Positions 27,853-63,591 are shown, counted from the stretch's first letter. The stretch is 64,000 nucleotides of DNA from Candidatus Latescibacterota bacterium (GCA_965222075.1 OZ244937.1:2368001-2432000); one strand, 5' to 3'. Notes: generated from the letters alone by a model not told the origin. Translations and numbers: made by a program.

Positions 27853-28155
27853 TCAAACGATGGAAACCACCAGGCTCAAATTTTCTTTTCGAAGCATATC
27901 TTGTAAGGCAAGCTGAACCCAGAAGCTTTCTGGCTCGCCAAGTTTTCTGGCGATTTCTGCTGCCCTGCCGGGGCTTGGAATTCTTCTCTCTTTTTCAATA
28001 TCACAAAGGCTTTGAGGCGAAATGCCCAAAAAAGTAGCAAATTCTCTCTGGTTTTTTTCTTCTCCCATGCGATAGCTTGCCAGGGCATTTCCAAAGGTAA
28101 GATATCCAAAGTCTTTCTCCAATTCAGGAATCCCATATTGTCCTTTAGTACTCAT
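27853..28155 (-). CDS. XRE/HigA-like HTH antitoxin (orphan)
   Basis: QREFATFLGISPQSLCDIEKERR HTH; upstream stub QEINKHEY* (28145-28171) overlaps its start. Confidence 0.8.
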   Translation of the reverse strand: MSTKGQYGIPELEKDFGYLTFGNALASYRMGEEKNQREFATFLGISPQSLCDIEKERRIPSPGRAAEIARKLGEPESFWVQLALQDMLRKENLSLVVSIV

Positions 28156-28269
28156 GTTTATTGATCTCCTGAAGCGGCTGCTTGGAAAATAGGCTTTATT
28201 TTCATCATTATGGGTGCCCCAAAGGGCGCATGACAACTGCTTAGAAAATAACCTTTCTTTTGCTCTTGG

Positions 28270-28560
28270 CCTTTTTCTTGTTCGCCCAAGAAAAAGGCCG
28301 AAAAAGAAGGGCGCCTGCCTGCGCGGCGCACCGCGCTGCAGGCAGGCCGCTCAAACGCCGCGGGGGCTGCTTTTCCGCGAATAGCCCCTGTGGTGGAAAC
28401 GGAAACTCCTGTCTGCCGTTCTGCCCTGCGGACCTTTGGGGCGTTGCTGGGCGATGGTGATGGACGGAACCGCGCGGAAAAGCCCACCCCCCTCATTACT
28501 CCCCCCTTGAGGGGGAGTCGGCAAGCCAGGCGCGCCGGTGGGGGGATCGCAGAGGCGACA
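28270..28560. repeat. Composite palindromic/MITE-like repeat
   Basis: TTTTCTTG..CGCCCAAGAAAAAGGCC.AAAAAGAAGGGCGCCTGCCTG recurs at ~34063-34120; hairpin ACTCCCCC-TTGA-GGGGGAGT at ~28498-28518. Confidence 0.6.
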
Positions 28561-28696
28561 GGACTCGTCGGCTGCGGTGACAACACGGCAGCCGGAGGAA
28601 CGTTACACGCCAGCCCAAGGCGATGCCCCATAAAGCATGCCCGTAGTCGGCTCTGATCCCTTGGCTGCAGATCAACTCACATGCATTGGAGGTGAG

Positions 28697-29155
28697 ATGA
28701 AAAAGCAATCGGAGGGGCTTTCTCACCGCGGATTGGCTGCGTCCTGTTTCAACAAGACCTGGGACTATCTGGGTAAGTCTGAACTCAGCGCCGAGGAAGC
28801 TGAAGAAATGATCCATGTGGCCCATGCTTCCTTCTGGCATTGGAATCAGGTTGAGGATCACACTCCGCTTAACATTTCTGTTGGGACCTGGCAGCTTTCT
28901 CGGGTTTACACAATGGCAGGACTTCCAGAGCGTGCTGAATACTTCGCACGGAGATGCATTGAAGTGAGTGAGAACAACAATCTGCCACCGTTCTATGTCG
29001 GCTACGGCTACGAGGCGAGTGCACGTGCGAAAGCTTTGCAGGGAGAGAAGCAGGAGGCACAGGATCTGATTGAGAGGGCAAAACGTCTTGCTGATCAAGT
29101 CCAGGAGAAGGATGACCAGCAGACGCTCCTTGACGACTTGAACAGTATTCTGTGA
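28697..29155 (+). CDS. Hypothetical alpha-helical protein
   Basis: GGAGG RBS; 152-aa ORF with FNKTWDYL, AHASFWHW, WQLSRVY; TPR-like helices. Confidence 0.7.
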   Translation: MKKQSEGLSHRGLAASCFNKTWDYLGKSELSAEEAEEMIHVAHASFWHWNQVEDHTPLNISVGTWQLSRVYTMAGLPERAEYFARRCIEVSENNNLPPFYVGYGYEASARAKALQGEKQEAQDLIERAKRLADQVQEKDDQQTLLDDLNSIL

Positions 29156-29385
29156 TCAGTAAACAGTGACTACTCAACGACTGCAAAGGCGTTGTGATTT
29201 TGCGGACCATTGGTGTCCCCATGACAGGGATTCAGCCACAAATGGGGCCGGCGTGTAACTGCGGACTTGCGTGCCCCACACATCCCTGACCACCCCACAG
29301 GCGTTTCGCGTACGGGGAAATCGTTATGCGGCATTTCCAGTGGCTGAATAGAGTGAGCATTCAGATGACCTTGTGAGGAATCTCG

Positions 29386-29732
29386 ATGATTGTCAAATCT
29401 GAAGCAGCAAAAGAGGCCAGCTTCGAAGGCCTTACGATTCGAGACTATACCCCGGATCACGACCGTAGTTCTTCATTGGCCACAGTCGAGGTGCCTCCCG
29501 GGGTGCAGCACCGAAAAGCACGGTCAACGCGTTCCGACAAATACTACTATGTGATTGAGGGGAAGATACACTTCACTTTGGGTGACGACGAAAACCACCT
29601 TGAAAGGGAGACTTCTGCCTGGTGCCAAAGGGAGTACATTTTGGGTACAGGAATGACACTCAAGTGATGGCGATCTTGTTGCTGTTCCATACCCCCAGCT
29701 TTGATTTATCGGCGGAGGTTTTCGAGGGTTGA
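29386..29732 (+). pseudogene. Cupin-domain protein, frameshifted
   Basis: Motif 1 (DKYYYVIEG) in one frame; motif 2 (GDFCLVPKGVHFGYRN...FHTPSFD) in the -1 frame after ~29605. Confidence 0.8.
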
Positions 29733-29793
29733 AATCGTAGGGACGTCCCTTGTGCACGCCCAATACGGCGAAAACGACGCAACCGACCATACC

Positions 29794-31460: not shown

Positions 31461-31528
31461 CTCTTAAGGCCTATTACCCGACCGTGAAAGAATACGTCTA
31501 CGGTATTTCCCTCTGGAGCTCACCTCTT

Positions 31529-31816
31529 CTACACCAAAGACAGCCGCTCGACCTTGATTCGGTCGGCTTGTTTCATCGCCTGCGCCAGGTCGTAGGCCGC
31601 CTGTAACCGGTACCACCTGGTCGCGCCCCTGCCGAAGGCCTTGTCGAGGCGGATCGCCATCTCCGGCGAGATCCCCGAATGGCCATTCACAACATCGGAC
31701 AACTGCTTGCGGCTGACGCCAAGCTTCTGTGCGGCTTCCGTCACGGTGAGGCCCAGCGGCTCCAGGCAGTCGTGACGGACGGACAGGCCCGGATGGGGCG
31801 GGTTCTTCATCGGCAT
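31529..31816 (-). CDS. higA: HigA-family antitoxin (orphan)
   Basis: MKNPPHPG...[17 protein letters not shown]...ISPEMAIRL...LQAAYDL. Confidence 0.92.
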
Positions 31817-31835
31817 ATCACGATCCTTCCTTCGG

Positions 31836-31861
31836 TGTAACCTGTCACCTCTCAGGTTACA
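31836..31861. promoter_or_regulatory. Palindromic TA operator upstream of higA
   Basis: TGTAACCTG-N8-CAGGTTACA, 20 nt from the higA start; no higB between. Confidence 0.7.
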
Positions 31862-31933
31862 ATTTTTCCCACACCTTCTCACCCCATGCGCGATTTTCTC
31901 GGCAGTCTCACGACCTTCGATAATTCCTTGTGA

Positions 31934-33784: not shown

Positions 33785-34175
33785 GGCTCAAAACATACTC
33801 CAAACAGTATATGCTGTCAAGGGCACTTTCAGCCGTCTTTGCGGCAGGCCCATCCTGGATAAGATCGCCTCCGGTCCAAACCGGCGCAAACCGGATGCTC
33901 GCACCTTCTCCGGCTTTGCAGCCTACAGGAGGCGTGGCGCAAATCTCCGGTTGAGGCCCCTGTCCGAAGCAGCGGTCATATATTACCGGGAACGGAGATT
34001 ACCGCGATTTTGGACAACCGATTGACGCACCCGGCCCTTTGTTCCCATGCCTTCGGCGAGACCTTTTCTTGCACGCCCAAGAAAAAGGCCCAAAAAGAAG
34101 GGCGCCTGCCTGTGCGTCGCACGCAATTAAGTAAACTTGCGTAGACACAAAGTTTTGTGTAGTATCATGCCAGTC

Positions 34176-34365: not shown

Positions 34366-35319
34366 ATGAAATGGGCACCTCGCATAAAGCCGCTGAAAAT
34401 CCGCCGTCTTTACAGGCTTTCTCGCATCGGCGTATATGATGATGAACTTCTACTCGAAGTAGGCTGGGGCTTGTATGCTCGGTGCAGGGATGTCGCAGCT
34501 GTGGCTCGTGCCATTGACTATGGCGAAGTCCCTTGTCCTCAATGCGGGACGAACGTGAAACGCAGAAACGTATTGTCACCAGCGGAAAGCGTCTGTCTTT
34601 TTTCCGAAAAAACTTATCGGTCGGGCTGGTTCCACTGCTCTTATTGCCTGAAACGTCTCTTATGGAGCGACTGCCGGGATGCCCTTCGGGAAACCCCTCG
34701 CTGCTTCGACTGCTATTCCATGTTGAAATTGAACGCTGAAACAAATCGGCTGGAATGCCAGTGCGGAAAATCCTGGGCGGCCCACCAATACCGGCAATCA
34801 GTTACTCGTCGGCTTCGTCTTCCCTGCCCAGAGTGCGGATCTCTTATCCGAAGACCGAATTCCCAAAGCAATCGCCGGGATGCAAGTAATGACGGTGAAC
34901 GCAAAGCCTCCTCTGCAAACCGTGAGTTCCTCTGTCCCAAATGCGGGAAGACGGCCGTACATTCGGGAGGCTACCTTCACTGTCCGCATTGTGATTACCG
35001 GCGCCGATGGAGAAACTTTCGTAAGTCACTGAAACGGCGCGATGAGAAACTGCTCTGCCATGGATGCGGCCACATCTTTAAGTGGCAGACGTGGAGGAAG
35101 GAAGTTTCGAGTCTAAAACTGAGAACAGGCCACCCATTCCCTGCACAGCTATTCATTGAAAAATGGCCCAGCTGCAAGAAACCTGAAGAAAAGATGCTCC
35201 AAATTGATTTCCTGATCCAGGCCCTGCATGGCCGCGGAGCATTGGCTCCCGTATTTATTGCGGGGAATGAGCGGAATATCCGTCAGTTACTTGACCAACT
35301 GGGGGCGCAGGTCGTCTGA
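34366..35319 (+). CDS. Cys-rich multi-zinc-ribbon hypothetical protein
   Basis: CPQC, CSYC, CFDC, CQC, CPEC, CPKC, CPHC, CHGC. Confidence 0.8.
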   Translation: MKWAPRIKPLKIRRLYRLSRIGVYDDELLLEVGWGLYARCRDVAAVARAIDYGEVPCPQCGTNVKRRNVLSPAESVCLFSEKTYRSGWFHCSYCLKRLLWSDCRDALRETPRCFDCYSMLKLNAETNRLECQCGKSWAAHQYRQSVTRRLRLPCPECGSLIRRPNSQSNRRDASNDGERKASSANREFLCPKCGKTAVHSGGYLHCPHCDYRRRWRNFRKSLKRRDEKLLCHGCGHIFKWQTWRKEVSSLKLRTGHPFPAQLFIEKWPSCKKPEEKMLQIDFLIQALHGRGALAPVFIAGNERNIRQLLDQLGAQVV

Positions 35320-35355
35320 GCTTTCAGGTGCTCCAGGAACTCTACCCGACCCTCT

Positions 35356-35409
35356 GAACTGATCGCGGGTCAACTTCCCAAGCGACAGCAGCATCTGGTT
35401 GAGGCCTGG
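35356..35409 (+). pseudogene. DUF4160 toxin-like remnant
   Basis: ELIAGQLPKRQQHLVEAW directly before the DUF2442 gene. Confidence 0.65.
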
Positions 35410-35422
35410 AAAGGAGATCGAC

Positions 35423-35725
35423 ATGCATCATCCCATATATCGCGTAATATTTTTTGAAATACACGCGCCCTATACGCTTCGAGTTTGTTTTGACGATGAT
35501 ACGGAACAGATTATCGATTTCCAGGCCATATTGGAAGGTGAATTATTCGGTCCACTTCGTGATTTATCCTTATTCAATCAAGTTCGGATTGATCCCGAGG
35601 TCTATACTCTGGTATGGCCGAATGGGGCTGATTTTGATCCAGCCACTTTACATGATTGGCCTCAGCATCTTCCCGAACTTAAGCGCATGGGCAAGCGTTG
35701 GTCTCTTGCCGGGACGAAGAATTAA
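35423..35725 (+). CDS. DUF2442 antitoxin-like protein
   Basis: YTLRVCFDDD...GELFGPLRD...TLVWPNGADFDP. Confidence 0.85.
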   Translation: MHHPIYRVIFFEIHAPYTLRVCFDDDTEQIIDFQAILEGELFGPLRDLSLFNQVRIDPEVYTLVWPNGADFDPATLHDWPQHLPELKRMGKRWSLAGTKN

Positions 35726-35747
35726 CGCGGTCTTAAAGAGGTCTATT

Positions 35748-36116
35748 ATGCAGGCAGTCGTGAAAACGCCCCGTATTGAAATCAACATCAAGGGAGAGAT
35801 TCCCGACAAGTTGATGTCCGTGTTGGAAGAGGAGTACGGCGAACAGGTTCAACTTTCCGAAGATAACGACGAAGAGCACGTTAATATCTTTGAGACCGAT
35901 TGGTATCGGAGTATCAAATCAGGAATGACACCGGGCAATAATTTGAGGATTTACCGGGAGAATCACGGTTTGACTCAGGCCAGGCTGGGTGAGATGCTTG
36001 GCGGTGTTCCTCGCCAGCATATCTCAAATATGGAGAGAGAGGTGAGGTCGATCAGCCTGAGAACAGCACGAAAACTGGCAGAGATATTCAAAATATCCCC
36101 TGAGAAGTTCATTTGA
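35748..36116 (+). CDS. XRE-family HTH antitoxin (orphan)
   Basis: TPGNNLRIYRENHGLTQARLG...HISNME; upstream stub EVYYAGSRENAPY* (35738-35779) overlaps its start. Confidence 0.85.
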   Translation: MQAVVKTPRIEINIKGEIPDKLMSVLEEEYGEQVQLSEDNDEEHVNIFETDWYRSIKSGMTPGNNLRIYRENHGLTQARLGEMLGGVPRQHISNMEREVRSISLRTARKLAEIFKISPEKFI

Positions 36117-36316
36117 GGACTGGAAATAGCAAACAGGACTCAACATTAACCCACGTGTTAGGGTTCACTCCCTGCGGTCACCCCGACTCAAATGGCAGTG
36201 GGTTCGTGTGTTGACTTGATCGAACACCCCATTGCCTCCGGGCGACTTAAGAACGGTATACCATGGACCAGAAACTGCGCCGCAAGTTCAAACGGATCAC
36301 AGACATCCTCTGGGCG

Positions 36317-36769
36317 GTCAAAACCTCCGTCCTCGTCTTCCGCCGCCCCGCGACCGGGCCGGAGGAGGGCCAGACCGCGACGAAACACGTGTGATTCTAC
36401 GAGATCCGCAACGACGGCTACGACCCCGACAAGATCCAGGGCGGCGGCCGTCCCGAAACACCGGAGAAGAACGACATCCCCGGCCTGCTCGCAGCGTGGG
36501 CCGATTACAAAGCCTCCCGCTTCGAGAAACCACCCGGCGAGGAGGCCTGCGCCCTGCTCGAACCGGGCAGGGACGAGCCCCGCTGCTGGTGGACGACCTT
36601 CGAGACCATCGCCGGGAACGACTACAACCTCGCCGCCTCCCGCTACAAGCCGCGTGTTGCCGAAGCGGTCCCCGACGAAGACCCGGCGGAACTGATCCGC
36701 GAGGTCCTGGCGATCGAACGCGAGATCACAGCGGGCCTGGAGAAACTGCTCGAAGAGGTGGAAAAGTAG
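36317..36769 (+). pseudogene. hsdM: Type I R-M methyltransferase HsdM, C-terminal remnant
   Basis: VKTSVLVF...HV*FYEIRNDGY...NDYNLAASRYK...EREITAGLEKL; in-frame TGA at 36392; 5' part absent. Confidence 0.75.
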
Positions 36770-36806
36770 CTCCAGAGACTTGATCTGCGGATACTGGAGG
36801 TCCAGC

Positions 36807-37049
36807 ATGAAGAACATCACAATCACCCTGCCGGAGCATGTCCTCCGGTGGCTGCGGGTCAAGGCCGCCGAGAACGAGCGCAGCGTCTCCAAATGGCTGG
36901 CCGAACTGCTGGAAAGGATGCAGCGCCAGGAAGACGAGTACGAGGTCGCAATGAAGCGCTACCTGGCGATGAAGCCACGCAAGATCAACTGGCGGGACGG
37001 CCGCAGGCCGACACGCGAGGAATTGTATGACCGGCCCGGTCTTCGTTGA
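36807..37049 (+). CDS. Ribbon-helix-helix VapB-like antitoxin
   Basis: MKNITITLPEHVLRWLRVKAAENERSVS...TREELYDR; GGAGG RBS. Confidence 0.85.
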   Translation: MKNITITLPEHVLRWLRVKAAENERSVSKWLAELLERMQRQEDEYEVAMKRYLAMKPRKINWRDGRRPTREELYDRPGLR

Positions 37050-37130
37050 CACGACCCGGTTCGGGTGATCAATCCGTTTGCGTCGCCGGACCGGACGCCG
37101 GAAGAGATACTGGAAGCCCTGGCGTCGTGA
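37027..37130 (+). pseudogene. PIN/VapC toxin with large internal deletion
   Basis: N-terminus MTGPVFVDT joined out of frame to C-terminus VRVINPF...EALAS*. Confidence 0.75.
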
Positions 37131-37293
37131 GCAGTGTGATCGTCGTGGCACATCTGGTAATGCCACCAATCGCACACCTGGGAGGGCGTTGCCTACACCG
37201 TCAGTTTCGGCATGACTCTGCTCTACTGGCGCCGGGTTCTCTGAGAAGAACCTGTGCCTCATGATCGCGTGTGACAATCAAGGAGGTACAAAC

Positions 37294-37539
37294 TTGAAAT
37301 CGATTGACAGAGACATCGTAATCCCCGCGGACGGCACGTTGCCGCAGGATTTCCGCGAAGCATTTGGCCGGAAGGCCCGTGTCGTCGTCTACCTGAAGGA
37401 CGACGAGTTCCAAAATACGCAACTCAACCAACGCCTGATGAGCCTCGCCGGCAAAATTCGGGCATTCCGAGACATTGACGACCCGGTTGGCTTGCAGCGC
37501 GACCTTCGAAATTCGTGGAAGCGTGGTTGGGACCAATGA
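37294..37539 (+). CDS. Putative VapB-type antitoxin
   Basis: GGAGG then TTG start; C-terminal DDPVGLQRDLRNSW; overlaps the vapC start. Confidence 0.7.
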   Translation: MKSIDRDIVIPADGTLPQDFREAFGRKARVVVYLKDDEFQNTQLNQRLMSLAGKIRAFRDIDDPVGLQRDLRNSWKRGWDQ

Positions 37540-37907
37540 CTACCGACCGTTTCCTGATTGACACCAATATCTTCATACTGTTGTTCAACAACCGTCTGGC
37601 GGAGCCTTTGCCGCCGGGCGAGCTTGCATGTTCGATAATCACCGAAATGGAATTGCTGTCTTTTCCGACTATTACTCCGCCGGAGGAAGTGTCGATACGC
37701 GAGATGCTTGCTGGCTTGACGGTGTACGGTATTGACCAGGAGACAAAAGAGAAAGCGATTCGTTTACGGCGCGACTTACAGCTCAAATTGCCCGATGCAA
37801 TCATCGTCGCGACTGCGATTTGCCACCATGCCGTCCTGCTAACGAATGACGCCGAGTTGGGAAGCGTCCCGGGTTCGAGAAGCCGGACCATAACGGTGAG
37901 CCAATAG
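37536..37907 (+). CDS. vapC: PIN-domain VapC toxin, apparently intact
   Basis: LIDTN, TEMELL, KLPDAIIVATA, LLTND acidic residues present. Confidence 0.9.
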   Translation: MTTDRFLIDTNIFILLFNNRLAEPLPPGELACSIITEMELLSFPTITPPEEVSIREMLAGLTVYGIDQETKEKAIRLRRDLQLKLPDAIIVATAICHHAVLLTNDAELGSVPGSRSRTITVSQ

Positions 37908-37967
37908 ATGAAGGGAAGCCAAATTCGTCCGAGCGGGGCTGGAGAAGTCGCTGAGCGAGGTAGAGCA

Positions 37968-38735
37968 ATGACCCAGGTCACCGACACACTCATAGACCGG
38001 ATGGTCCGGGCCATCGTTGACGAAGTCGATCCCGAGCAGGTGATCCTTTTCGGCTCCCGCGGCCGGGGCGACGAGCGGCAAGATTCGGATGTGGATCTGG
38101 TCGTCGTGGAAGCCGAGCCCTTCGGCCCGGAGCGAAGTCGCCACAAAGAGATGGTCAGACTCTACCACGCGCTGGCGGGCTTTCCCGTCCCCGCCGACAT
38201 CCTCGTCTACTCCCATGAAGACGTCGACTACTGGCGCGACTCCCTCAACCACGTCCTGGCGCGGGTGCTGCGGGAAGGGCGGGCACTTTATGAGCAACAG
38301 CCCGTACCGATGGCGGAGTGCTGCGCGAAAGCAAGGTGCTCTTTCCGCGATGTCAAATGCGCCCGGATGCTCGTCGAAGCGACTGAACGCCATGTCCTCA
38401 CGCTCCGGAACCTGACTGCCGCCGCGCCGGAAGAATCGTTTGGATTCCATGTGCAACAGGCAGCGGAGAAGGCGTTCAAAGCCTGGCTCGCACTGCTGGG
38501 TGAGATGTACCCGCTCACCCACAATCTCGAAGCGCTGCTGGGCCTCCTCGCCGACCGGGGCGTCGCTACGAAACCTTTCCGGAAGCTGATCAACTACACA
38601 CCCTACGCCGTCAAGTTTCGTTATGAGGGTGTCAACTCGAGTACCGAGCCGATTGATCGCGAGGATGCGCTCACACTCGTCGAAACGCTGCTAAAACAGG
38701 TCCGGCGGCAGCTGGCAGAACAGGAGGGGGCGTGA
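37968..38735 (+). CDS. Minimal nucleotidyltransferase (MNT) fused to HEPN domain
   Basis: LFGSRGRG...DSDVDL (MNT); FHVQQAAEKAFKA...THNL...RY (HEPN); single ORF. Confidence 0.85.
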   Translation: MTQVTDTLIDRMVRAIVDEVDPEQVILFGSRGRGDERQDSDVDLVVVEAEPFGPERSRHKEMVRLYHALAGFPVPADILVYSHEDVDYWRDSLNHVLARVLREGRALYEQQPVPMAECCAKARCSFRDVKCARMLVEATERHVLTLRNLTAAAPEESFGFHVQQAAEKAFKAWLALLGEMYPLTHNLEALLGLLADRGVATKPFRKLINYTPYAVKFRYEGVNSSTEPIDREDALTLVETLLKQVRRQLAEQEGA

Positions 38736-39303
38736 TGAAGTGGCCTAGACCCCGTCTCAGGCAGCTTCTACTCGACGCGAGAAGCGGAACATGGGGCTCC
38801 CCACCAGACGAATCGAAGCCTGTGTATCCGGTGTTGCGCTCCACAAACATTCAGGATGGCAAGCTCGTAGTTGACAACCCGGCACTACGGACGCTGTCTG
38901 AGAACACTGTTGAGAAGTATCATGAGAAGGAGACATACTCGTAACAACTTCGTCGGGAAGCTCACGCCTTCTCGGAAAGAACGCGATTATAGAGAACCTT
39001 CCTGGAAACAACGATAAGTACGTGTTCTCAAACTTCACATGGAGACTCCGTCCAGTCGTGAGCCATGTGCTCCCAAAATTCCTCTATTACTACCTCAATT
39101 CTCCTACTGCTCGCACCGAACTTGAACGCATCCAAAGCACGACCAGCGGTCTCAGAAAGCTGAATATCGAAACCCTGAAGACAGTTCTGTATGAAATATT
39201 TGTCCTTCCAGACGAGAAGAAACAACGCATTAGCGCGATACAGCAGCTTCGGGAACAGGCCCTTGGGAAAAGCGCGAATAGAACAACTGAGGTGAATCAA
39301 TGA
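38732..39303 (+). pseudogene. hsdS: Type I R-M specificity subunit HsdS remnant, frameshifted
   Basis: PVLRSTNIQDG / EGDILVTTSSGS...GK / FSNF...LRP...PKFLYYYLNS spread over several frames. Confidence 0.75.
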
Positions 39304-39524
39304 ACACCAAGGCAATCAGCAGGAATCCTGGCATCCTCGGCGGAACCCCGGTGTTCTCTGGAACCAGAGTCCCGATACGTATCCTGATCGAACACCTGGA
39401 AGCAGGGGACCGTCTCGACGACTTCCTTGACAGCTACCCCACAGTGTCACGTGACCAGGCGATTGAGGTACTCAAAACCGCGAAAATGGCACTGACCGGG
39501 AAATCGGATGAAGCTGTTGTTTGA
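39300..39524 (+). CDS. DUF433 antitoxin
   Basis: PGILGGTPVFSGTRVP...FLDSYPTV. Confidence 0.9.
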   Translation: MNTKAISRNPGILGGTPVFSGTRVPIRILIEHLEAGDRLDDFLDSYPTVSRDQAIEVLKTAKMALTGKSDEAVV

Positions 39525-39669
39525 CGAGTCCATGCCGAGACCACTCGGGGCGTACTTCCCGAGATCATTCGAGATACTTACGGTCCAGCGCATGGGCTGG
39601 ACGGGACGATCGAACGGTGATCTCCTGCGCCTGGACGCGGCCCACGAATTCGAGCAATTCGAATGGTGA
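39508..39669 (+). pseudogene. DUF5615 PIN-like toxin, truncated
   Basis: MKLLFDESMP...TVQRMGWTG..NGDLL stops after ~53 aa. Confidence 0.8.
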
Positions 39670-39767
39670 ACCTGAAACGAATCCATACCTACAATGCCGT
39701 CAACCTCAAGAAAGGCTACCCCCTTCTCGAGATTCGAACTCCCCGGGAGATTTCAGACGATGAGTAA
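39663..39767 (+). pseudogene. PIN toxin C-terminal remnant
   Basis: VNLKRIHTYNAVNLKKGYPLLEIRTPREI overlapping the next start. Confidence 0.65.
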
Positions 39768-39969
39768 GCCTTCTACCAAAATCTTCGATTGTGTCCGAAA
39801 TATGCGCCAGAATCGAGACAGGCTCAGTGCCGAGATTGCGGACATGAGCTACGACGAACTGGCGAAGTGGCTTCGAGTCCATCAGTATTCGGACCCTCTT
39901 CTCCAACGGCTGGCGGAGAAGGCTGCCCAACAAGCCGATGCAGCGGACCAGCCTGCGGCCGGTTTGTAA
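39760..39969 (+). CDS. Small putative antitoxin; 3' end runs into an attC-like site
   Basis: FDCVRNMRQNRDRLSAEIADMSYDE; tail AAQQADAAD is translated attC-like DNA. Confidence 0.65.
   Translation: MSKPSTKIFDCVRNMRQNRDRLSAEIADMSYDELAKWLRVHQYSDPLLQRLAEKAAQQADAADQPAAGL
39925..39962 (+). other. Left half of an integron attC-like site
   Basis: GCCCAAC (RYYYAAC) AAGCCGATGCAGCGGAC...; right half missing. Confidence 0.55.
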
Positions 39970-40074: not shown

Positions 40075-40147
40075 CTGGACGAGACGATCGAACAGTGATC
40101 TCCTGCGCCTGGCCGCGGCCCACGAATTCGAGCAGTTCAAGCGGTAA
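40075..40147 (+). repeat. 73-bp direct repeat of 39597-39669
   Basis: CTGGACG.GACGATCGAAC.GTGATCTCCTGCGCCTGG.CGCGGCCCACGAATTCGAGCA; about 8 mismatches. Confidence 0.9.
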
Positions 40148-42862: not shown

Positions 42863-43150
42863 GAACGAGAAAGTTGTCCACGCCGTCGTAGCCGCCCCTA
42901 CGGCGCTAAAACCGGTCCAAACGATTAAAAACCATCGAGTCTGCTACGAGGGTCCCCCGGTTGAAGTCAGCCTCGGAGCCGGGTTGCCTGTCAATGGCGA
43001 TAAAGCCGAGGTTGGGGATGGCCCAACATATCGCGCTTGAGGCGCAGAACCGTGAAGTCGGTTAGATCTTGCGAAAGGCACTCTCTGTCAACCACACCAA
43101 ATTCGGTAACGTGCTAACCAAAGTTGCCAGTTTTTAAAAAAAGAAAAACC

Positions 43151-44410
43151 ATGGCTGATTCCAAAAAACCTGATGATACCTTTCGCGTCTTGCACACTGC
43201 CGATTGGCATTTGGGAAAAACACTGAATGATCAATCGAGGGATAAAGAACACGTGCTGTTCCTCAACTGGCTGCTCAAAATTATCGACGAATGTACAGTC
43301 GATGTACTGGTCATTGCAGGCGATGTGTTCGACGCCGCAAACCCGCCACAATTGGCACAGTCCCGATATTACGATTTTGTTTCTCAACTTTACAAAAACA
43401 CTAAATGTTCACTCATCGTCACTGCAGGCAACCACGATTCGCCATTACAATTAGAAGCACCGCGCCAGGTGTTGCAGGCACTCGGCGATCATGTCGTGGG
43501 TTTCTTGTCCGAAGACACCGCATCTCGCCTTATCGTCTTGCCTTCACCTGAAAATCCACGCCTTGTCATCGCAGCTATTCCCTTTTTGCGAGACAGAGAT
43601 CTCAGAACAGGCTACGCTGGTCAGGATGCAAAAGATATTCAACAAGCGCTCATTGCTGGCATCACACAGCGTTATGCAGAGACCGCCGAAGCAGCAGCCA
43701 AATGGTCTGAAAAAGGTGTACCGATATTGGCAACAGGCCACCTCACTGTCATGGGTGCCTCAAAATCGGATAGCGAAAGAGAAATCCATATCGGTGGTCT
43801 TGGTGCTGTTAGTGCAGACGTATTTCCCGATATCTTTTCTTATGTCGCCCTGGGACATCTACACCGGCCACAAAAACCATATAACCACGTATGTTATTCC
43901 GGATCTCCCATTGCGTTGAGCTTTAGCGAAGCAAATGATACCAAAGAAATCCAAATGCTCGATTTTGCAGACGGCACCTTAAAAGCACAAACGTCAATCC
44001 CTGTGCCAGTATTCCGCAGATTGGCGCAGATTCGCACATCGTGGGACGACCTATCGGAAGCCATCAGCAATTTTAATCCGGACACTGGCGAACTGGAAAC
44101 CTGGGTCGAGGTCGTTGTCAAAGATGCGAGCTTTAGTGAGGATATCAACGAGACAGTACAGAGTTTGGTGGCAGAGCTGGATTTTACGGTGCTAAAAGTA
44201 ATGAGAGAAAGTGCGACTCCGCCACCGGGTATGCGTATTGGGGACTATTCAGATGACGAAGCCATTGAAACACTTCTCGATGATCCCAAACAGGTATTCG
44301 AGCACCGACTGGAAGAAAAATCCGATATAAACGAAGAACATAAACAGGAACTTAAAATTGCTTTTGCTCAGCTACTCGATCTCCACCAGACGGAGAGCAC
44401 GGACACATGA
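43151..44410 (+). CDS. sbcD: Exonuclease SbcCD subunit D
   Basis: HTADWHLG, AGDVFD, AGNHDS, GHL, ALGHLH, YSGSP. Confidence 0.95.
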   Translation: MADSKKPDDTFRVLHTADWHLGKTLNDQSRDKEHVLFLNWLLKIIDECTVDVLVIAGDVFDAANPPQLAQSRYYDFVSQLYKNTKCSLIVTAGNHDSPLQLEAPRQVLQALGDHVVGFLSEDTASRLIVLPSPENPRLVIAAIPFLRDRDLRTGYAGQDAKDIQQALIAGITQRYAETAEAAAKWSEKGVPILATGHLTVMGASKSDSEREIHIGGLGAVSADVFPDIFSYVALGHLHRPQKPYNHVCYSGSPIALSFSEANDTKEIQMLDFADGTLKAQTSIPVPVFRRLAQIRTSWDDLSEAISNFNPDTGELETWVEVVVKDASFSEDINETVQSLVAELDFTVLKVMRESATPPPGMRIGDYSDDEAIETLLDDPKQVFEHRLEEKSDINEEHKQELKIAFAQLLDLHQTESTDT

Positions 44411-47334
44411 AAATCGATCGAATCATTCTCAATAATCTGAATTCTCTACGCGGCAAACACATCATTGATCTGACCGCTGAACCGCTGTCAAACGCAGGCC
44501 TGTTTGCAATTACGGGACCGACGGGCGCCGGCAAGTCAACATTGCTCGATGCCATTACCCTTGCCCTTTACGGTCGTGCTGCTCGTTATGGCAACCAGCC
44601 TAATCCTGAAAACATCATGAGTCGTCGTTGTGGTGAATGCTCTGCCGAAGTTGAATTTGAAGTTCCCAAGGGTAAGTACAGGGCCGTTTGGCAACTGAGA
44701 CGCGCACGAGGCAAAGCAAATGGCAGAATCCAGCCACCAAGACGTTATATATACGATAATGGCACTACGCTCGCACAGCAAGTGCGTGAGTGCGACGAGC
44801 TGGTTGTCGAACTGATAGGACTTGATTACGACCGTTTTGTAAGAAGTGTCATGCTCGCACAGGGTGAGTTTGCACGATTTTTAAAAGCCGACGCAAATGA
44901 ACGTGCAGGACTTCTAGAATGTCTTACGGGAACAGCTATCTATTCAGACTTGAGCATCCTTGCCCACAAGGAAGCGACACGCCGTGAGAATGATCTCATG
45001 ATCAAACAGCAAGCACTCGAACAAATCGAGATCCTTAAAGATGAAGAGCGCCAAGAAGTCGAGGATCATATCGCCGGGTTAAATAAAGAAAAACATGTGT
45101 TGGAAAAAGACCTCGATGAAAAATCGGAAATTGCCGTAAACATCGATAAACTCGAATCGGCATTAACGCAAAAGACAGAAATAACTGAAAATTTGGAAGT
45201 TTTGGAAGCAAGCCGCAAAGATGCCGAACCCGATTTGAAACTCCTCAAAAGACACCGGGAGACGACACCCTTCAGGGATGATCTTATCCACCTCCAAAAT
45301 GCGGAAGATACGGCGTATAGCTGCGAAGAGAAGAGACAAGCAGCACAGGATGAGCGCGACGAAGGATATGAACAATGCCAGCAGGCAAAATTGAACTATT
45401 ACAGAATCTTGAAAAATGAAATCGCCGAACAAGAATTGACAATCCAGGATGTCAAAGCTCGTGCGCGTAAAGCCAATGAAATACTTAAAGTAGAAAAAGA
45501 GTGGCTGGAAGCCCACCAGATAGATGCCGACCTTTCAGACCACATCACAGACCTGGCAGCTAATCTGACAGAATTAAGATCCAGACGCGCAACGCTCAAG
45601 CGGGAATGGGAACAGGTATGCGACATAACATCAGTATTGGCATCTGGCGCGATAGAACCGTTGCTACTTGAAAATACAGAAGAAGAAGAGCTAAAAACGA
45701 TCCTTAATACGATTGCAGAAAGACTTGCGGAAGAACATAAAAGTGCCGAAGATGAGCGCACTTCTGCCGAAAAAGATCTCGGTCTTCGCAAGGATCATCT
45801 ACAGAAAGCCCAATCGATCGCAAACCACGATACACATCGCGCTTCCCTTGTAAAAGGTGAACCATGTCCGCTTTGCGGCGCAACCGAGCATCCTTATGCA
45901 GAAGGCCAGGAGCCGAGTTTTCCATTTGAAGACCTGGAAGCGGAGGTCGCCAGAGCGGAGGCAACGCGCAACGCCAGGACCGATCGCGTTTCAAAACTCT
46001 CCGAAGCATTCAAGAAATTGACATCTCAACAATCTGTTGCTATAAAAGCACATCAAGATTTGACAGAATACGAAGCAGAGCTTCTTGACAGCCTTGGTGT
46101 TTTTGAGGTTGCATTGCCAGAGGAAGGTAAAGAGGAAGAAACGCGAAAATCCCTTCAAGACCGCGAAAAGGCGTATCAAACACATCGGGAAATTTGCGAC
46201 GACGCAGAGCAAGCGGTCGAAGGAGCCAAAGACGATAAAAACAACGCACATATCTTGCTTGAGAAACGGACACTTGATCTTCAACAACTCGAAGATATTG
46301 AAACAGAAGATGTTGAGATAGAGGGCGATGTGGCTGAACGGCTGAGTGTAGAGGAAGCAGAGCAGGATTGGTCGGACAAAAAGACCACATTGGAAATTCA
46401 AGAGGCTGAACTCAACGCTCGACTACAGGACACAAAAACCGCGCAAAAATCACTGCAAGAAATTCAAGAACGCCTCATATCTGCCCTGGAAGAATCCGAT
46501 TTCCAAGATCTGGACGATCTGCGTGCGGCAAAATTGAGTCAAGAAAAAGCCGGCCGTATAGAACAAATCGAAACCGATCTTCAAAACAAAGAACATGATC
46601 TAACCACCCGGTTAAGCATTGCAGAAGAAGAAATCGAATCCCTTCGAGAAGCCGAAATTCCAGAAGGAGATGAGGCAGAACAGTTCAAAGCAGAACATGA
46701 AAAATTACAAGATGATCGAGATATACTCATCGAAAAGCTTACAACTCGGCAAAATCAGGTTGAAGTGGACGACAAAAACCGCCTGAAACTCGCTAAACAG
46801 CAGAAATTATTGGAAGAAGCACAAAAAGAAGTGGCCATCTGGAACCGTTTGCGTGTGTTGATCGGCTCTCACGACGGCGCAAAATTTCGAAAATATGCAC
46901 AAAGTATTTCTCTGGATATACTCATTCGCCACGCTAACCAGCATCTGATCCGGTTGAGTGATCGTTACCGAATTCAGAGGCGTACAGAGGAAGAACTCCA
47001 GCTTGAAATCGAAGATTTGCACCAGGCGGGAGTCACACGGCCTATGGCCAGCCTTTCCGGCGGCGAAAGCTTTCTTGCCAGCCTGGCGCTTGCCCTTGGC
47101 CTCTCTGAATTGGCTGGGAGAAATGTGCGTATTGAATCGCTCTTTATCGATGAAGGGTTTGGCAGCCTGGATTCAGAAGTTCTCGATCTCGCCATTGGAA
47201 CCCTTGAAGGATTGCATCAGGATAACAAAAGTGTGGGCGTGATCTCACATGTCGAACTTCTAAAGCAGCGTATCGCAACGCAGATCAGAGTGATAAAACA
47301 AACGGCCGGCAACAGCATATTGAAAATCGTCTGA
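44407..47334 (+). CDS. sbcC: Exonuclease SbcCD subunit C
   Basis: GPTGAGKS, LAQGEF, CPLCG Zn hook, LSGGE, FIDEGFG, ISHV. Confidence 0.95.
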   Translation: MKIDRIILNNLNSLRGKHIIDLTAEPLSNAGLFAITGPTGAGKSTLLDAITLALYGRAARYGNQPNPENIMSRRCGECSAEVEFEVPKGKYRAVWQLRRARGKANGRIQPPRRYIYDNGTTLAQQVRECDELVVELIGLDYDRFVRSVMLAQGEFARFLKADANERAGLLECLTGTAIYSDLSILAHKEATRRENDLMIKQQALEQIEILKDEERQEVEDHIAGLNKEKHVLEKDLDEKSEIAVNIDKLESALTQKTEITENLEVLEASRKDAEPDLKLLKRHRETTPFRDDLIHLQNAEDTAYSCEEKRQAAQDERDEGYEQCQQAKLNYYRILKNEIAEQELTIQDVKARARKANEILKVEKEWLEAHQIDADLSDHITDLAANLTELRSRRATLKREWEQVCDITSVLASGAIEPLLLENTEEEELKTILNTIAERLAEEHKSAEDERTSAEKDLGLRKDHLQKAQSIANHDTHRASLVKGEPCPLCGATEHPYAEGQEPSFPFEDLEAEVARAEATRNARTDRVSKLSEAFKKLTSQQSVAIKAHQDLTEYEAELLDSLGVFEVALPEEGKEEETRKSLQDREKAYQTHREICDDAEQAVEGAKDDKNNAHILLEKRTLDLQQLEDIETEDVEIEGDVAERLSVEEAEQDWSDKKTTLEIQEAELNARLQDTKTAQKSLQEIQERLISALEESDFQDLDDLRAAKLSQEKAGRIEQIETDLQNKEHDLTTRLSIAEEEIESLREAEIPEGDEAEQFKAEHEKLQDDRDILIEKLTTRQNQVEVDDKNRLKLAKQQKLLEEAQKEVAIWNRLRVLIGSHDGAKFRKYAQSISLDILIRHANQHLIRLSDRYRIQRRTEEELQLEIEDLHQAGVTRPMASLSGGESFLASLALALGLSELAGRNVRIESLFIDEGFGSLDSEVLDLAIGTLEGLHQDNKSVGVISHVELLKQRIATQIRVIKQTAGNSILKIV

Positions 47335-47497
47335 CGCTCAACCTGGTTTCACTCAGTCTGTAGCGTATGCCGTGGCTTTGCCACCCCACGAGCCCGCCTG
47401 ATGCCTAACATTGCGCATGCGAGCGTCAGACCGTCTCAAGACAGGCTCAAAACGGCGCTTCGGCTCGCGGGTCGTCGTTAATTGAACTACGCCGTGC

Positions 47498-47536: not shown

Positions 47537-47544
47537 AGAAACGC

Positions 47545-47787
47545 ATGATCGTCAAGATTACGTCAAAGCGCCAGGTCACCTTCCCCGCACGGGTGCTGGA
47601 TGCGCTGGGGGTACGGCCTGGCGACCAGCTTGAGCTGGAAGAAGGCCCCGACGGCTTTATTCTGCGGCCGCGGCGAATCGATCCCAACCGGCTTGCGCCG
47701 TTGCGCGCCAAGCTTCAACGTGGACGCGGCGGGTTCAATCTCAAGTCGTTCCGCGAGCAACCCTATGACCCGACGCTTCGGGATTGA
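47545..47787 (+). CDS. AbrB/MazE-type antitoxin (orphan)
   Basis: KITSKRQVTFP...LGVRPGD; followed only by a VapC stub MTRRFGIDTSVLV (47765-47803). Confidence 0.88.
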   Translation: MIVKITSKRQVTFPARVLDALGVRPGDQLELEEGPDGFILRPRRIDPNRLAPLRAKLQRGRGGFNLKSFREQPYDPTLRD

Positions 47788-47850
47788 TACGTCCGTACTC
47801 GTCAAAAAATCCTTTCCTCCCACGTCCCCTCCTGCCCGATCCCCCTGGTT

Positions 47851-54120: not shown

Positions 54121-54136
54121 CGGGGCTCGTCGGGCG

Positions 54137-57328: not shown

Positions 57329-57398
57329 AGATGACAGGTGGATGAGCGATCTGCAACCGCTGATCCGCCTGTAAAACTCACAGGTCCGTCCGCCCCAT

Positions 57399-57488
57399 CG
57401 CCGGAGTGAACAGCATTCGTAGCGACAACCCTGGCGACCCGTTCGTTAGAGCGAGACCCCGAGGGGAAAACCCGTCGGGGTCTTGCCG
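57399..57488 (+). repeat. Degenerate copy of tRNA-Asn 3' end and flank (attR-like)
   Basis: CGCCGGAG plus 66 nt aligning ungapped to 27704-27769 at 54/66 identity. Confidence 0.8.
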
Positions 57489-57617
57489 TCTCTCCGCTTC
57501 CACAAGCCTCCCGGTGCCTCGGAGGGCTCCGCTTGAGCCGGGCAGCTACGAGCGTCGGTCCGCGACCGACCTCCAGCGCCACCCGCTTCAGGCGTTCCAC
57601 ACCCGCTTCGGTTCCCA

Positions 57618-58775: not shown

Positions 58776-58829
58776 AGGTATTGGGGGATGTTTTTCGTGC
58801 GCCCATCTCGATGCGGCACCGCTGATCGA

Positions 58830-60106: not shown

Positions 60107-60311
60107 AGTACAACTCCTGTGTTACAGGGGATGCCAATGGTTGATGGCGGGACAAAACTCATCGGCGGACCGGCCGAAAGACTGCCCGTTAATTATGTGC
60201 CAAACCCGCCCGGTGCGCAAGTCATTTCTACGAGTCGCGCCGGTGGCGATCTCACCGGAACATGCTGCCGGCTTTCGAAGAGGTTGTCCCGGTGCGCCGG
60301 CCGGGTTTCAG

Positions 60312-61030
60312 TCAGGCCGAGGCGCCGGAATAGTGGCGGAGCCCCCACCGCCAGAACAGACGTGACGCGATCAGCATACCAGCCGCCACCAGAATCGCGG
60401 CCGTGAGCGACTCCGAATCGAGCCGGCCGGTCAGGGCCCGCGCGGGGACCGTGATTGCGAAAGCAATTGGAACGATGAACGTGAGCATGAAACGGAGCCA
60501 GTGGGGATAGATGCCGATCGGCCAGCGTCCCGCCTGAACCACCGCGTCGAATATGTTGAGGATATTCTCGACCTTGATGTACCAGAATGAAATCGTTGAC
60601 AGGATCAAGAAGAAGCTGTAGATCGTGGCCGCGCCACACAGAAGGACCAGGCCAAATGTGATTGCGTCCACAACGCCAACCTCAAGCCCCCGGTTGAAAA
60701 GCGCGTAGAAGAGCACGATGCCGCCAAGCACGAAGTCCGTGACCTTCCAGATACGAAACTGGCTGATGCTGACGAGAAACTGCGCATCTTCGGGCCTGGT
60801 CAGGGTATAGTCGAGCGTTCCCCGTCGCACGTCGGTCATCAGCTGCCCCATGCTGGGCCGGATGACGAGTGAGATCGCTCCCCCGGCTCAACGCTGAAGG
60901 AAATGGTCTCGACGGCCTTGACCACCCGCATTTTCCGGTTCACGAGGCTTTTGAGCGCCGCGACCAGGCCGGCCTCGCGTTCGGGGACGACGTAGAATTT
61001 GGAGAGGTCTCTGACCTTGATGGCGTGCAT
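60312..61030 (-). pseudogene. ABC-2 transporter operon collapsed by deletion
   Basis: ATPase start (MHAIKVRDLSKFY...ISFSVEPGE, no Walker A) joined to the C-terminal part of a DUF990-type permease (GTLDYTLTRP, RWPIGIYP). Confidence 0.75.
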
Positions 61031-61067
61031 GGCCCCTAAGATATTGATTGGCATATTTTAATACATA

Positions 61068-61097
61068 ATTATACATATATTCATGAACCCATGTCAA
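61068..61097 (-). promoter_or_regulatory. Consensus sigma70 promoter of the ABC pseudo-operon
   Basis: Minus strand TTGACA-18 nt-TATAAT. Confidence 0.7.
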
Positions 61098-61205
61098 GGT
61101 CTTCCCCACTGCAAAATGGGATACGGTTGGGCGGGACCGGTTCTGGAATCGACAAGTCGCGCGAAGAAGGGACTGGCCCGCGTTCACCAGTAAGGAGACC
61201 GAATC

Positions 61206-63344
61206 ATGAAGATGCGCCTCACCATCCGGCAAGCCAATCGGGTTCTGCTGTTTGTGGTCATGCTCAGTGGCGTGGTGCTCGCCTGGGGCACGTTCCAGAC
61301 ATATCAGAACCTCCCTCCCATTCCCCAGGCCCTGGTGACCGACACCGGCATTGAGGTCTTCAATGAAAACGGGATCCGAGCCGGCCAGGCCGTTTTCCAG
61401 CGGCGCAACCTGATGGGGTTCGGCACGCTTCTCGGTAACGGCAGCTACTTCGGCCCCGACTTTACGGCCGAGTACCTGGGATGGCTCCGCGATGAGATCG
61501 GAACGCAGGAGCTACGACGCTCCCTGCGGGCGAATGGCAGCGTCTTCCGCGTTCCCGAGGTCTGGATCACCGCCCACCGCCGGGTCGTCCAGGCCTACCG
61601 AAATCGGTTTGTCAACGGCGAACCTGAGCTCGGGGTCGCCAGCAACACCCTGCGGGAAGACGAGATCGAGGATCTGGCGGCCTTCATCGGGTGGACAGCC
61701 TGGTTCAGCCTTCTCGAACGTCCCGGCAGCGACGGCTCGTACACCAACAACTTTCCGTACATGCCCGAGCTTGGACTGGTGCCAACCAGCGGCACCATCC
61801 TCTGGACGATCTGGACCATGGGTCTGGTCCTTATCCTCGCCCTGCTTGTTGTTCTGGCGTACGTGTACGTGGATATCGAGCCGATCCCGGAACTGCCCGC
61901 GCTGGAGGAGCGTGCCAGCAAGCCTGCGTCACCACTCGAAAGAACGGCGCTTTTCGTGCTGGGCAGCTGCACCGTGGTCTTTGTCCTGCAATGTCTGGCC
62001 GGTGGGTACCTGGCGAATGCGTACGCCAACCGCGAATCGTTCTACGGCGTCTTCCAGTGGCTCGGGTTCGAGCGCATGGCGGTACTTCCCTTCCAGACGG
62101 TGCGATCTGCCCACACCGCGATGGCCGTGATCTGGGTTGTCGGGATGTGGATGGCGGGCGCCCTTTACGTCGCTTTGCGGATCGGTGGTACCGAGAAGCG
62201 CTGGCACCGCCGCGCGGCGTCAATCTCTATCGGCCTGCTGGCGGTCTCCGTGGTTGGCGCGCTCCTGGGGATCTTCGCAAGCGTTCGCGGATGGCTGGAC
62301 GCGAGTTGGTGGTTGATAGGCTCCGAGGGCACCGAGTACCTGGAAATGGGGCGCTTGTGGCGTGCCGGCATCGGCATCGGTTTCGTGATCTGGGTCGCTA
62401 TTATCGTCTCTGCCCTGCGAGGCACCCGAGTTCGCTGGAAGCCCTTTCTGGACTTACTGATGCTCACCGGCATCGGCATCACGGCCGCCTTCTTTGCCAG
62501 CTTCCTGTACTGGCCGGACAGCCACTGGGTGATCATCGATTACTGGCGCTGGTGGACCGTCCATCACTGGGTCGAAGGAATCTTCGCCTTCTTTCAGATC
62601 CTGGTGACGGGGTGGTTCCTGGCCGGGCTGCGGCTGGTGAGCCGCGAAGACGTGACCAAAAGCCTCTATCTTGAGGGCACGATCGTTCTGCTGGCGGGAT
62701 TCCTGGCGGTGGGGCACCACTACTGGTGGGTCGGCGAGCCGACCTTTTGGATGGGGATCGGCAGCGTCTTCAGCACACTGGAGGTACTGCCGCTATTCCT
62801 GTTGTTGGCCAGCGCACTCCGGACCCTCAGGGCTGGGATACGCGATCTGGGCACCATCCATCGCGTGTCGCTGCTCTTTTTCCTCGCCGCGGCAATATGG
62901 CAGTTCCTGGGTTCCGGGATCCTGGGCTTGTTGATCAACCTGCCGATCGCCAACTACTATGAGCATGGGACGTTTCTGACCGTGGCACACGCGCACGGCG
63001 CCTTTCTCGGCGCCTTCGGCTTTCTCGCTCTGGGCCTGCTGCTTTATGTCATTCGCCACGCGTCTCCGGATGGCTGGGACGAACGCAAGCTGCGGCTGAG
63101 CTTCTGGCTGCTCAATGTCGGCCTGCTGATCATGATTGGGCTGTCGGTCACCCCGATCGGCGTTCTGCAGCTGATAACCGTTGTGCAATCCGACTACGCG
63201 GCGGCGCGCGCGCTGGCATTCTACGAACGGCCCTCCGTGTACGTGCTCAATTACCTGCGCGTACCTGGCGACGCCACGATCATCCTCGGAGCCGCGCTGC
63301 TTGCCTGGCAGATCGTACCGCGCATTCTGCGCCGGGGCGACTGA
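61206..63344 (+). CDS. Quinol-dependent nitric oxide reductase (qNOR/NorZ type)
   Basis: [56 protein letters not shown]. Confidence 0.9.
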
Positions 63345-63393
63345 ACGGTTTCGAACTCGCGGGTATCCACTTATGTTATGGGAATATTTGAAG

Positions 63394-63591
63394 ATGTCTG
63401 ACGAAATTATCAAGGAGCTCTGGCAGATCAAAGACGGCATCGCGCGGGAACATGGGTATGATATCGAGGCACTTGTTGCCCATCTTCAAACCAAGAAGCG
63501 GCCGGAAGGTCAGCAAGTTGTGGATCTACGTGCCATGAAGGGTGCCGCCGAACAGGGCGCTCCACCGGACGCAGACAAGCCGCGCCACTGA
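63394..63591 (+). CDS. Small hypothetical, antitoxin-like cassette gene
   Basis: DEIIKELWQIKDGIAREHGYDIEAL; 3' end overlaps an attC-like site. Confidence 0.6.
   Translation: MSDEIIKELWQIKDGIAREHGYDIEALVAHLQTKKRPEGQQVVDLRAMKGAAEQGAPPDADKPRH

Follow-up and report, generated by a model that had tools for sequence, protein, structure and literature searches.

Why would a bacterial chromosome hold a series of intact antitoxin genes next to toxin genes of which only stubs are left? The question is raised by a stretch of 64,000 nucleotides (nt) from Candidatus Latescibacterota bacterium (GCA_965222075.1, OZ244937.1:2368001-2432000), called the window below, which covers positions 2368001-2432000 of a single source contig of 5.36 Mb without N. 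Nine antitoxin-type open reading frames (ORFs) of toxin-antitoxin (TA) modules lie between its positions 27853 and 63591. All nine are intact and of full length compared with their homologues, and a toxin remnant, matched each time to a homologous toxin, is recognizable beside eight of them, the exception being HigA. None of the nine has the intact adjoining toxin ORF of a type II TA pair, which only VapB2-PIN (37261-37907) possesses. We regard this as probably the usual two-step erosion of TA modules, toxin first, taking place in a variable defence island where most of the antitoxins are selectively retained.

Intact antitoxins and toxin remnants

An antitoxin family was assigned to seven of the nine ORFs (HTH_3 twice, HigA, DUF2442, RHH_5, DUF433 and AbrB/MazE); orf39760 and orf63394 have none. 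The ORFs and the elements beside them are given here with position in the window, strand and evidence. L, G and X numbers designate loci, genomes and sequencing runs, and aa stands for amino acids.

27853-28155, minus strand: XRE1, HTH antitoxin of 100 aa, intact (Pfam HTH_3)
28145-28173, minus strand: final 8 codons and stop of the RelE/HigB-like toxin of XRE1, ending in QEINKHEY (homology to intact pairs from query position 223; alignment)
31529-31816, minus strand: HigA, 95 aa, intact (TIGR02607, 102.4 bits against a cut-off of 47.7)
31847-31872, no strand: perfect 9+9 inverted repeat, operator-like, about 30 nt (31 bases) upstream of the HigA start; it also scores as a hairpin
35355-35413, plus strand: internal 59-nt fragment of DUF4160, query positions 128-186 (DNA homology)
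35423-35725, plus strand: DUF2442, 100 aa, intact (Pfam)
35738-35779, plus strand: final 13 codons and stop of the XRE2 toxin, EVYYAGSRENAPY (end of an 87-aa toxin)
35748-36116, plus strand: XRE2, HTH antitoxin of 122 aa, intact, 23 nt past DUF2442 (Pfam HTH_3)
36807-37049, plus strand: RHH antitoxin, 80 aa, intact (RHH_5, 26.3 bits against 26)
37027-37132, plus strand: VapC, internally deleted, about 367 nt lost (BLAST and alignment to L085, L084 and L087)
39300-39524, plus strand: DUF433, 74 aa, intact (Pfam, E = 2.9e-16)
39508-39669, plus strand: DUF5615, first 53 codons only (weak Pfam match, profile positions 1-43 of 110)
39663-39767, plus strand: 34-codon C-terminus of a 164-aa-type PIN toxin, ending 8 nt inside orf39760
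39760-39969, plus strand: orf39760, 69 aa, placed like an antitoxin after the PIN stub (94% aa identity in G003)
40075-40145, plus strand: second copy of a 71-nt DUF5615 piece, 90% identical to 39597-39667 (repeat search)
47545-47787, plus strand: AbrB/MazE antitoxin, 80 aa, intact (Pfam MazE_antitoxin; TIGR01439)
47765-47803, plus strand: first 13 codons of VapC, MTRRFGIDTSVLV (the same 13 codons begin an intact VapC at G000:C1:1224357, also in this genome)
63376-63401, plus strand: last 26 nt of a PIN toxin gene (homology to the intact L010 pair from query position 470)
63394-63591, plus strand: orf63394, 65 aa, partner of PIN toxins in relatives (no family in Pfam or NCBIfam)

A module with an intact toxin is known in relatives or in the same genome for six of the eight remnants, the exceptions being the DUF5615 beside DUF433 and the stub before orf39760. 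Close homologues of XRE1, XRE2, DUF2442, AbrB, RHH and orf63394 are partnered by toxin-family ORFs (respectively HigB-like, a protein without Pfam family, DUF4160, PIN by Pfam, VapC and PIN). XRE1 shares 82-88% aa identity with homologues placed behind a RelE/HigB-like toxin and does not belong to the HigA family TIGR02607 (18.6 bits against the cut-off of 47.7). In four of the seven loci read first, the partner is an ORF of 83-97 aa that ends in EEINKHDY and is HigB-like by a weak Pfam match (E = 0.005). In the window, a copy of a dispersed repeat of about 230 nt stands in place of the promoter and most of this toxin, of which no homologue was found in the window's genome. At HigA there is no higB remnant, and higB DNA is absent from the window; the DNA homology shared with higBA pairs begins exactly at the ATG. 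An intact HigB of 92 aa is present in three HigA loci (L037, L038, L067) among those read as ORFs, and the HigB homologues elsewhere in the window's genome are all distant (33-41% identity).

DUF2442 is 81-93% identical in aa to its homologues, four of seven of which stand behind an intact DUF4160. As the DUF4160 piece of the window is internal, both ends of the toxin are gone. Just upstream (34366-35319) lies an ORF of 317 aa with many Cys-x-x-Cys pairs and no solid Pfam family; a second copy, 96% identical, is found at G000:C1:1866821-1867770. The copy in the window ends 36 nt before the DUF4160 fragment, and its arrival may have cut the toxin. Elsewhere in the genome DUF2442 gives 7 hits vs 3 full and 2 partial for DUF4160. 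Five relatives have the 87-aa toxin of XRE2 intact; it belongs to no Pfam family, and no homologue of it was found in the window's genome. The reverse state is seen at L068 (G010:C1:2141692-2144289), where the 87-aa toxin is intact and XRE2 stops prematurely near codon 77, with the HTH domain split off.

At the RHH module, what is left of VapC is 26 nt of its 5' end (37027-37052) and 74 nt of its 3' end (37059-37132); the same junction, followed by the same downstream genes, recurs at L140. Besides the window's genome, the order contains of this module only an 83-nt piece in G018. Its intact relatives come from other lineages: we collected 80 loci (L084-L163) at 65-91% aa identity, with records labelled Latescibacterota, Gemmatimonadota, Acidobacteriota, Binatia, Alpha- and Gammaproteobacteria, Thermodesulfobacteriota and others, a distribution that points to wide horizontal exchange. 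VapC, taken as a downstream ORF of at least 115 aa, is kept in 58 of them and missing from 22. A search of the genome with the antitoxin only gave a single RHH paralogue, which also lies beside a truncated VapC.

The DUF5615 linked to DUF433 is truncated or absent throughout the six relatives' loci that were read; none is intact. Intact DUF433/DUF5615 pairs of other lineages are present in the window's genome, where DUF433 gives 8 further hits vs 2 for DUF5615. The two copies of the 71-nt DUF5615 piece bracket the PIN stub and orf39760, and homology to G003 breaks off right at them, which would fit an insertion of the cassette into the DUF5615 gene. The alternative that 39663-39767 is the missing, frameshifted half of DUF5615 was rejected: the stub fits the C-terminus of the genome's own PIN paralogue (score 42, reached by 0 of 1000 shuffles), and contigs of runs X1 and X5 prolong it upstream as SWNFKH. 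Its score against the PIN of L010 falls short of significance (equalled in 70 of 500 shuffles). As orf39760 matches nothing in Pfam or NCBIfam and resembles orf63394 at chance level (217 of 500 shuffles), it is a putative antitoxin by its position behind the stub alone.

The intact VapC that shares its first codons with the stub at AbrB adjoins an AbrB 79% identical to that of the window. In four other loci with an orphan AbrB (L165-L168, in G020, G021, G014 and G015) a second AbrB-VapC module follows about 280 nt on, its VapC truncated in two of the four. Homologues of orf63394 have a full PIN of 164 aa ahead of them in three relatives.

These results bear on an original prediction that had described intact antitoxins with destroyed partners, and on this central point it holds. 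Its reading of the stubs as toxin ends at XRE1 and XRE2, as an internally deleted VapC at RHH, a truncated DUF5615, a C-terminal piece of PIN before orf39760 and a VapC start at AbrB is borne out by the homologues, and orf63394, which it had listed with doubt, can be added. Other details need amending. HigA does lack higB; its operator is at 31 nt from the start instead of 20 nt. A DUF4160 remnant is present; it is not the part adjoining the antitoxin, and this departs from the proposed rule that surviving stubs lie next to the antitoxin start, which is partly a product of how orphans are recognized. The vapBC pair thought to be the only intact one is indeed intact, from 37261 instead of 37294, and the MNT-HEPN fusion at 37908-38735 is intact too.

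Orphans, pairs and selection across the order

All 53 genomes of the order were searched, with an intact pair from a relative or from the genome itself as DNA query for each family, and copies were classed by the part of the query that each match covers. Over seven families, 41 copies have a full-length toxin region vs 71 orphans, and toxin-only copies are nearly absent (at most three candidates). The matches are distributed as follows:

XRE1 (47 matches): 8 with toxin and antitoxin, 17 antitoxins that keep no more than 76 nt of toxin, 1 toxin beside half of an antitoxin, 8 fragments of the antitoxin and 13 short pieces of the toxin part
HigA (66 matches): 8 with the higB region, 15 orphans, and 43 fragments or paralogues at no more than 72% identity, left outside the classification
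DUF2442 (28 matches): 6 close pairs, 7 close orphans, 8 distant pairs, 3 distant partial copies and 4 short pieces
XRE2 (23 matches): 8 full length, 7 truncated at the 5' end, 3 distant and 5 fragments
AbrB (15 matches): 8 pairs and 7 with AbrB only
orf63394 (27 matches): 3 pairs, 1 with a third of PIN, 10 orphans, 1 fragment and 12 short pieces
DUF433 (17 matches): 8 copies, from 7 genomes in 2 genera; wherever the locus was read, DUF5615 is not intact

The orphan is the majority state of these families across the order, and the pattern is not confined to the window.

Selection was measured on pairwise comparisons (NG86), the sharper set being orphans with a common deletion junction, whose divergence arose after the loss of the toxin. 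Between orphans, the ratio of non-synonymous to synonymous substitution rates (dN/dS) is 0.12-0.19 for XRE1, DUF2442, XRE2 and DUF433, which resembles, and does not exceed, the values between paired copies: as had been anticipated, these antitoxins are not drifting. Five intact XRE1 orphans with one junction, at which promoter and operator directly adjoin the toxin's final 20 nt, have a ratio of non-synonymous to synonymous differences per site (pN/pS) of 0.072 at a synonymous divergence (dS) of 0.25-0.56. Two independent pairs of XRE1 orphans show 7 non-synonymous vs 40 synonymous differences, with 78% non-synonymous expected under neutrality (binomial p = 5e-20). The pN/pS is 0.26 for three one-junction orphans of XRE2, 0.27 for seven orphans of DUF433 and 0.17 for eight HigA orphans of the window's family, in most of which a common junction leaves the promoter and two higB codons in place. 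Toxin deletions that spare the native promoter and operator were seen in relatives for XRE1, XRE2 and HigA. A promoter scan was uninformative (12 sites vs 9.0 +/- 3.4 expected). Most of the orphan families are under purifying selection after toxin loss.

Several points weigh against erosion with selective retention. The families were picked for being orphans in the window, so the census ratio is inflated, and at least 4 of the 41 full-length toxins are broken (three XRE2 toxins and one HigB), only part of the 41 having been read as ORFs. Orphans are relaxed in AbrB (0.275 vs 0.109 for paired copies) and in orf63394 (0.47 vs 0.285). Four of the 17 XRE1 orphans are broken by a stop, a frameshift or a lost start; XRE2 in L016 and DUF433 in L023 are damaged, and the stop in XRE2 of L068 occurred beside an intact toxin. 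NG86 on pairs is crude for genes of 65-122 codons, and the pairs are not independent. One junction could arise repeatedly through microhomology, as one XRE1 allele lies between TTTGAT repeats, and gene conversion from paired copies could keep orphans apparently constrained. Finally, the toxin losses of the window cannot be dated, and the intactness of its own copies may reflect a recent paired past.

What the antitoxins may be kept for

With toxin-first erosion and selective retention, deletions, insertions and recombination would have taken out the toxin genes, a loss that is safe for the cell; the antitoxin genes would have stayed, since they cannot be lost while the toxin works; and most of the survivors, as seen in the relatives, stay under purifying selection once the toxin is gone, often behind their own promoter and operator. 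Given this selection and these control regions, the orphans most likely still act as DNA-binding and toxin-binding proteins. Among the benefits that selection may favour, we would rank first the neutralisation of related toxins, whether resident paralogues (AbrB, DUF2442, orf63394) or incoming ones (XRE1, XRE2, HigA, RHH), and second a regulatory use as stand-alone repressors. AbrB, DUF2442 and orf63394 might be retained because of the related intact toxins that the genome carries. The presence of such toxins had been named beforehand as a result that would tell against the library discussed next; the expected absence of cognate toxins holds for XRE1 and XRE2. For XRE1, XRE2, HigA and RHH an incoming-toxin or regulatory role remains.

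A more specific proposal, and that of the original prediction, is a dedicated anti-addiction library in which orphans are kept to neutralise the toxins of incoming plasmids, phages and islands that carry TA modules. It has been published as a hypothesis, as far as the available text of PMC7192599 and PMC7354431 goes. Purifying selection continuing past toxin loss is in its favour, as are the lack of an XRE1 or XRE2 toxin in the genome and the movement of modules between families and even phyla (XRE1 is 87% identical in nt to copies in another family; RHH relatives are at 65-91% aa identity). Moreover, in contigs from the same metagenome runs the XRE2, RHH-VapC and orf39760 modules continue into toxin sequence missing from the window (loose ends at 35738 in four of four runs, at 37057 in two and at 39663 in two), which implies that cognate toxins are around. 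However, the RHH and XRE2 proteins have no close homologue among 72,556 plasmid records (best 38.5% and 41.8% identical), intact related toxins of some families reside in the same genome, some orphans decay, and the clustering is explained by a long-lived hotspot common to relatives. Selective retention of most antitoxins thus stands from the predicted library; loss of the toxin first is the expected, published course of decay and needs no library, which we consider unlikely. A broader version is equally doubtful to us: the toxin-less antitoxins might form a selected, horizontally exchanged immunity repertoire, in which promoter-sparing deletions yield self-regulated genes that spread, outnumber pairs by about 2:1, gather in a hotspot and blunt addiction or abortive killing by TA modules circulating between phyla.

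Orphans with HTH, RHH or AbrB domains might alternatively have been kept as ordinary transcription factors, their link to toxins gone, an option named in the available text of PMC12654330 and PMC10790755. The strongest constraint is indeed on the three HTH proteins (XRE1, HigA, XRE2), and toxin-less alleles retain native operators. Yet no target genes are known, and the orphans lie in variable islands and are exchanged horizontally, which is unusual for integrated regulators. DUF433, DUF2442 and orf63394 are not known to bind DNA, which also counts against co-option, and we give this explanation little credence.

Could the antitoxins be intact merely for want of time, their toxins lost recently and no selection acting? 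A transient orphan stage is predicted by two-step decay (PMC13617665, in its available text), and both the broken orphans and the relaxed AbrB and orf63394 would suit it. It is at odds with one-junction orphans that have reached a dS of 0.25-0.9 at a dN/dS (omega) of 0.02-0.21, and with a DUF433 that is an orphan in 8 of 8 copies over 7 genomes and 2 genera. It is also at odds with the window itself, where, in agreement with the original prediction, nine of nine antitoxins are intact and the adjacent hsdM and hsdS are in pieces; a neutral snapshot is therefore rather improbable.

That the stubs are assembly chimeras can practically be discounted: modules are repeated within metagenomes and Logan contigs do break at module borders, but the genome is one contig without N, the RHH-VapC junction recurs in L140, contigs of X1 (which may be the window's source sample) and X6 span it, contigs of X1 and X5 span the DUF4160/DUF2442 junction, and like junctions exist in many independent genomes.

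Two-step erosion with selective retention has clear precedents. Among TA copies of Photorhabdus (Belot et al., Mol Biol Evol 2026, PMC13617665), 185 have only the toxin pseudogenised, 186 have both genes affected and 8 only the antitoxin, a pattern called two-step decay. As here, according to the available text, toxins are truncated or deleted first and antitoxins left, at sites of high gene turnover, and toxin-only states are rare (8 there, at most three candidates here). That study, as far as its text is available, concerns one cultured gamma-proteobacterial genus and reads the pattern as relaxed selection, whereas here it is order-wide, orphans exceed pairs and selection is mostly purifying. 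Orphan antitoxins are also abundant in populations of Klebsiella pneumoniae and E. coli, with 2253 and 73,201 occurrences (PMC7192599, PMC10790755). The accessible parts of these two papers likewise report plentiful toxin-less antitoxins, many in a degraded-pair context, and propose anti-addiction and regulatory roles; they are within-species surveys, while in the present case 36 kb contain 8-9 orphans from at least six families, for which junctions were mapped and dN/dS calculated. Phage-borne orphan antitoxins act as counter-defence (PMC11825919): there too, in the text available, a toxin-less antitoxin-like gene is kept to neutralise a toxin encoded elsewhere, though the carrier is a phage facing a host defence and not a chromosome, where no phage genes were seen beside the orphans. 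A review (PMC7354431, available text) judges the anti-addiction role of orphan antitoxins plausible but undemonstrated.

The asymmetry of toxins lost and antitoxins kept is a prediction of TA biology that has already been described, and the anti-addiction library is an existing hypothesis. Added here are an orphan majority across an order, toxin deletions that spare promoter and operator, and purifying selection on most orphan families; our literature search returned no paper pairing "orphan antitoxin" or "solitary antitoxin" with "purifying selection". The chromosomal ccd of Erwinia, set against the ccd of the F plasmid, reportedly provided (Saavedra De Bast is said to have shown it in 2008) experimental anti-addiction by a complete TA pair. 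By analogy, a chromosomal antitoxin of the window could neutralise the related toxin of a mobile element; unlike the complete pair of Erwinia, the antitoxins here are toxin-less and known from their sequence alone. The function of orphan antitoxins is an unsettled question of the TA field, for which this clade offers clean natural experiments: toxin deletions common to diverged genomes, surviving native promoters, and intact cognate toxins in close relatives. For annotation there is a warning, as most calls of a "TA antitoxin" in such lineages are not TA systems.

Island setting and neighbouring elements

The remaining features of the region are the following:

27619-27694, plus strand: tRNA-Asn(gtt), 159 nt from the end of XRE1, at the left edge of the variable region
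28255-28485, no strand: dispersed repeat of about 230 nt, MITE-like (189 BLAST pieces genome-wide, many at 70-97% identity)
36263-36775, plus strand: hsdM remnants (36312-36775 at 78-85% to relatives; N-terminal 18 aa by eye)
37261-37539, plus strand: VapB2, antitoxin of the sole intact pair, overlapping the PIN gene (no Pfam match)
37515-37907, plus strand: VapC2 (PIN), 130 aa, intact (Pfam PIN, E = 2.9e-13)
37908-38735, plus strand: fused MNT-HEPN ORF, 275 aa, intact (Pfam NTP_transf_2/Polbeta and HEPN)

A strong negative GC skew in the left part of the window stops past about 28 kb, after which the GC content fluctuates between 48% and 69%. The 20 kb past the tRNA form a mosaic, pieces of which are found at 70-94% nt identity in 38 of 41 related genomes, differently arranged and often from a different family within the order; the single congeneric genome has only dispersed repeat matches there. 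The right-hand part, where SbcCD-like genes are followed by AbrB and then by two ABC transporter genes, a porin and a TonB-type receptor, is syntenic in three genomes of a sister genus, which carry TA and defence genes at the equivalent site. We therefore place the antitoxins in a long-lived, variable hotspot of defence and TA genes.

An island integrated at the tRNA was considered and rejected: the 3' end of tRNA-Asn has no second copy genome-wide, and in the sister-genus relatives the tRNA flank lies about 0.9 Mb from the island. An integron-like cassette array was dropped as well, the repeat search having given no repeated recombination sites between modules (no integrase search was run). 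The 71 nt directly past the tRNA (27704-27774), which include a GC-rich hairpin, are found again 29.7 kb downstream at 57423-57493 with 80% identity, and a partial copy of the 230-nt dispersed repeat lies at 34064-34122. Judged by eye, both hsdM and hsdS near the antitoxins are fragments, and the N-terminal 18 aa of the hsdM remnant fit an HsdM-like ORF of L018. The SbcCD-like genes (43078-47348) share 86% nt identity with G029, of another family, vs 72% with G021, of the same family, which suggests horizontal transfer of this defence-linked pair.

VapB2 is without PIN in all six relatives' loci: five have an MNT gene at the PIN position and L021 an SbcD-like gene. In L011, L013, L014, L016 and L024 the first nine codons of the window's PIN (MEAWLGPMT; 37515-37560 compared) lead directly into MNT, and PIN seems to have been excised in these five between short repeats coding for TD.LID. 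MNT and HEPN, fused in the window, are encoded in L013 and L014 by two overlapping ORFs, one of about 115 aa and the other of 132-145 aa.

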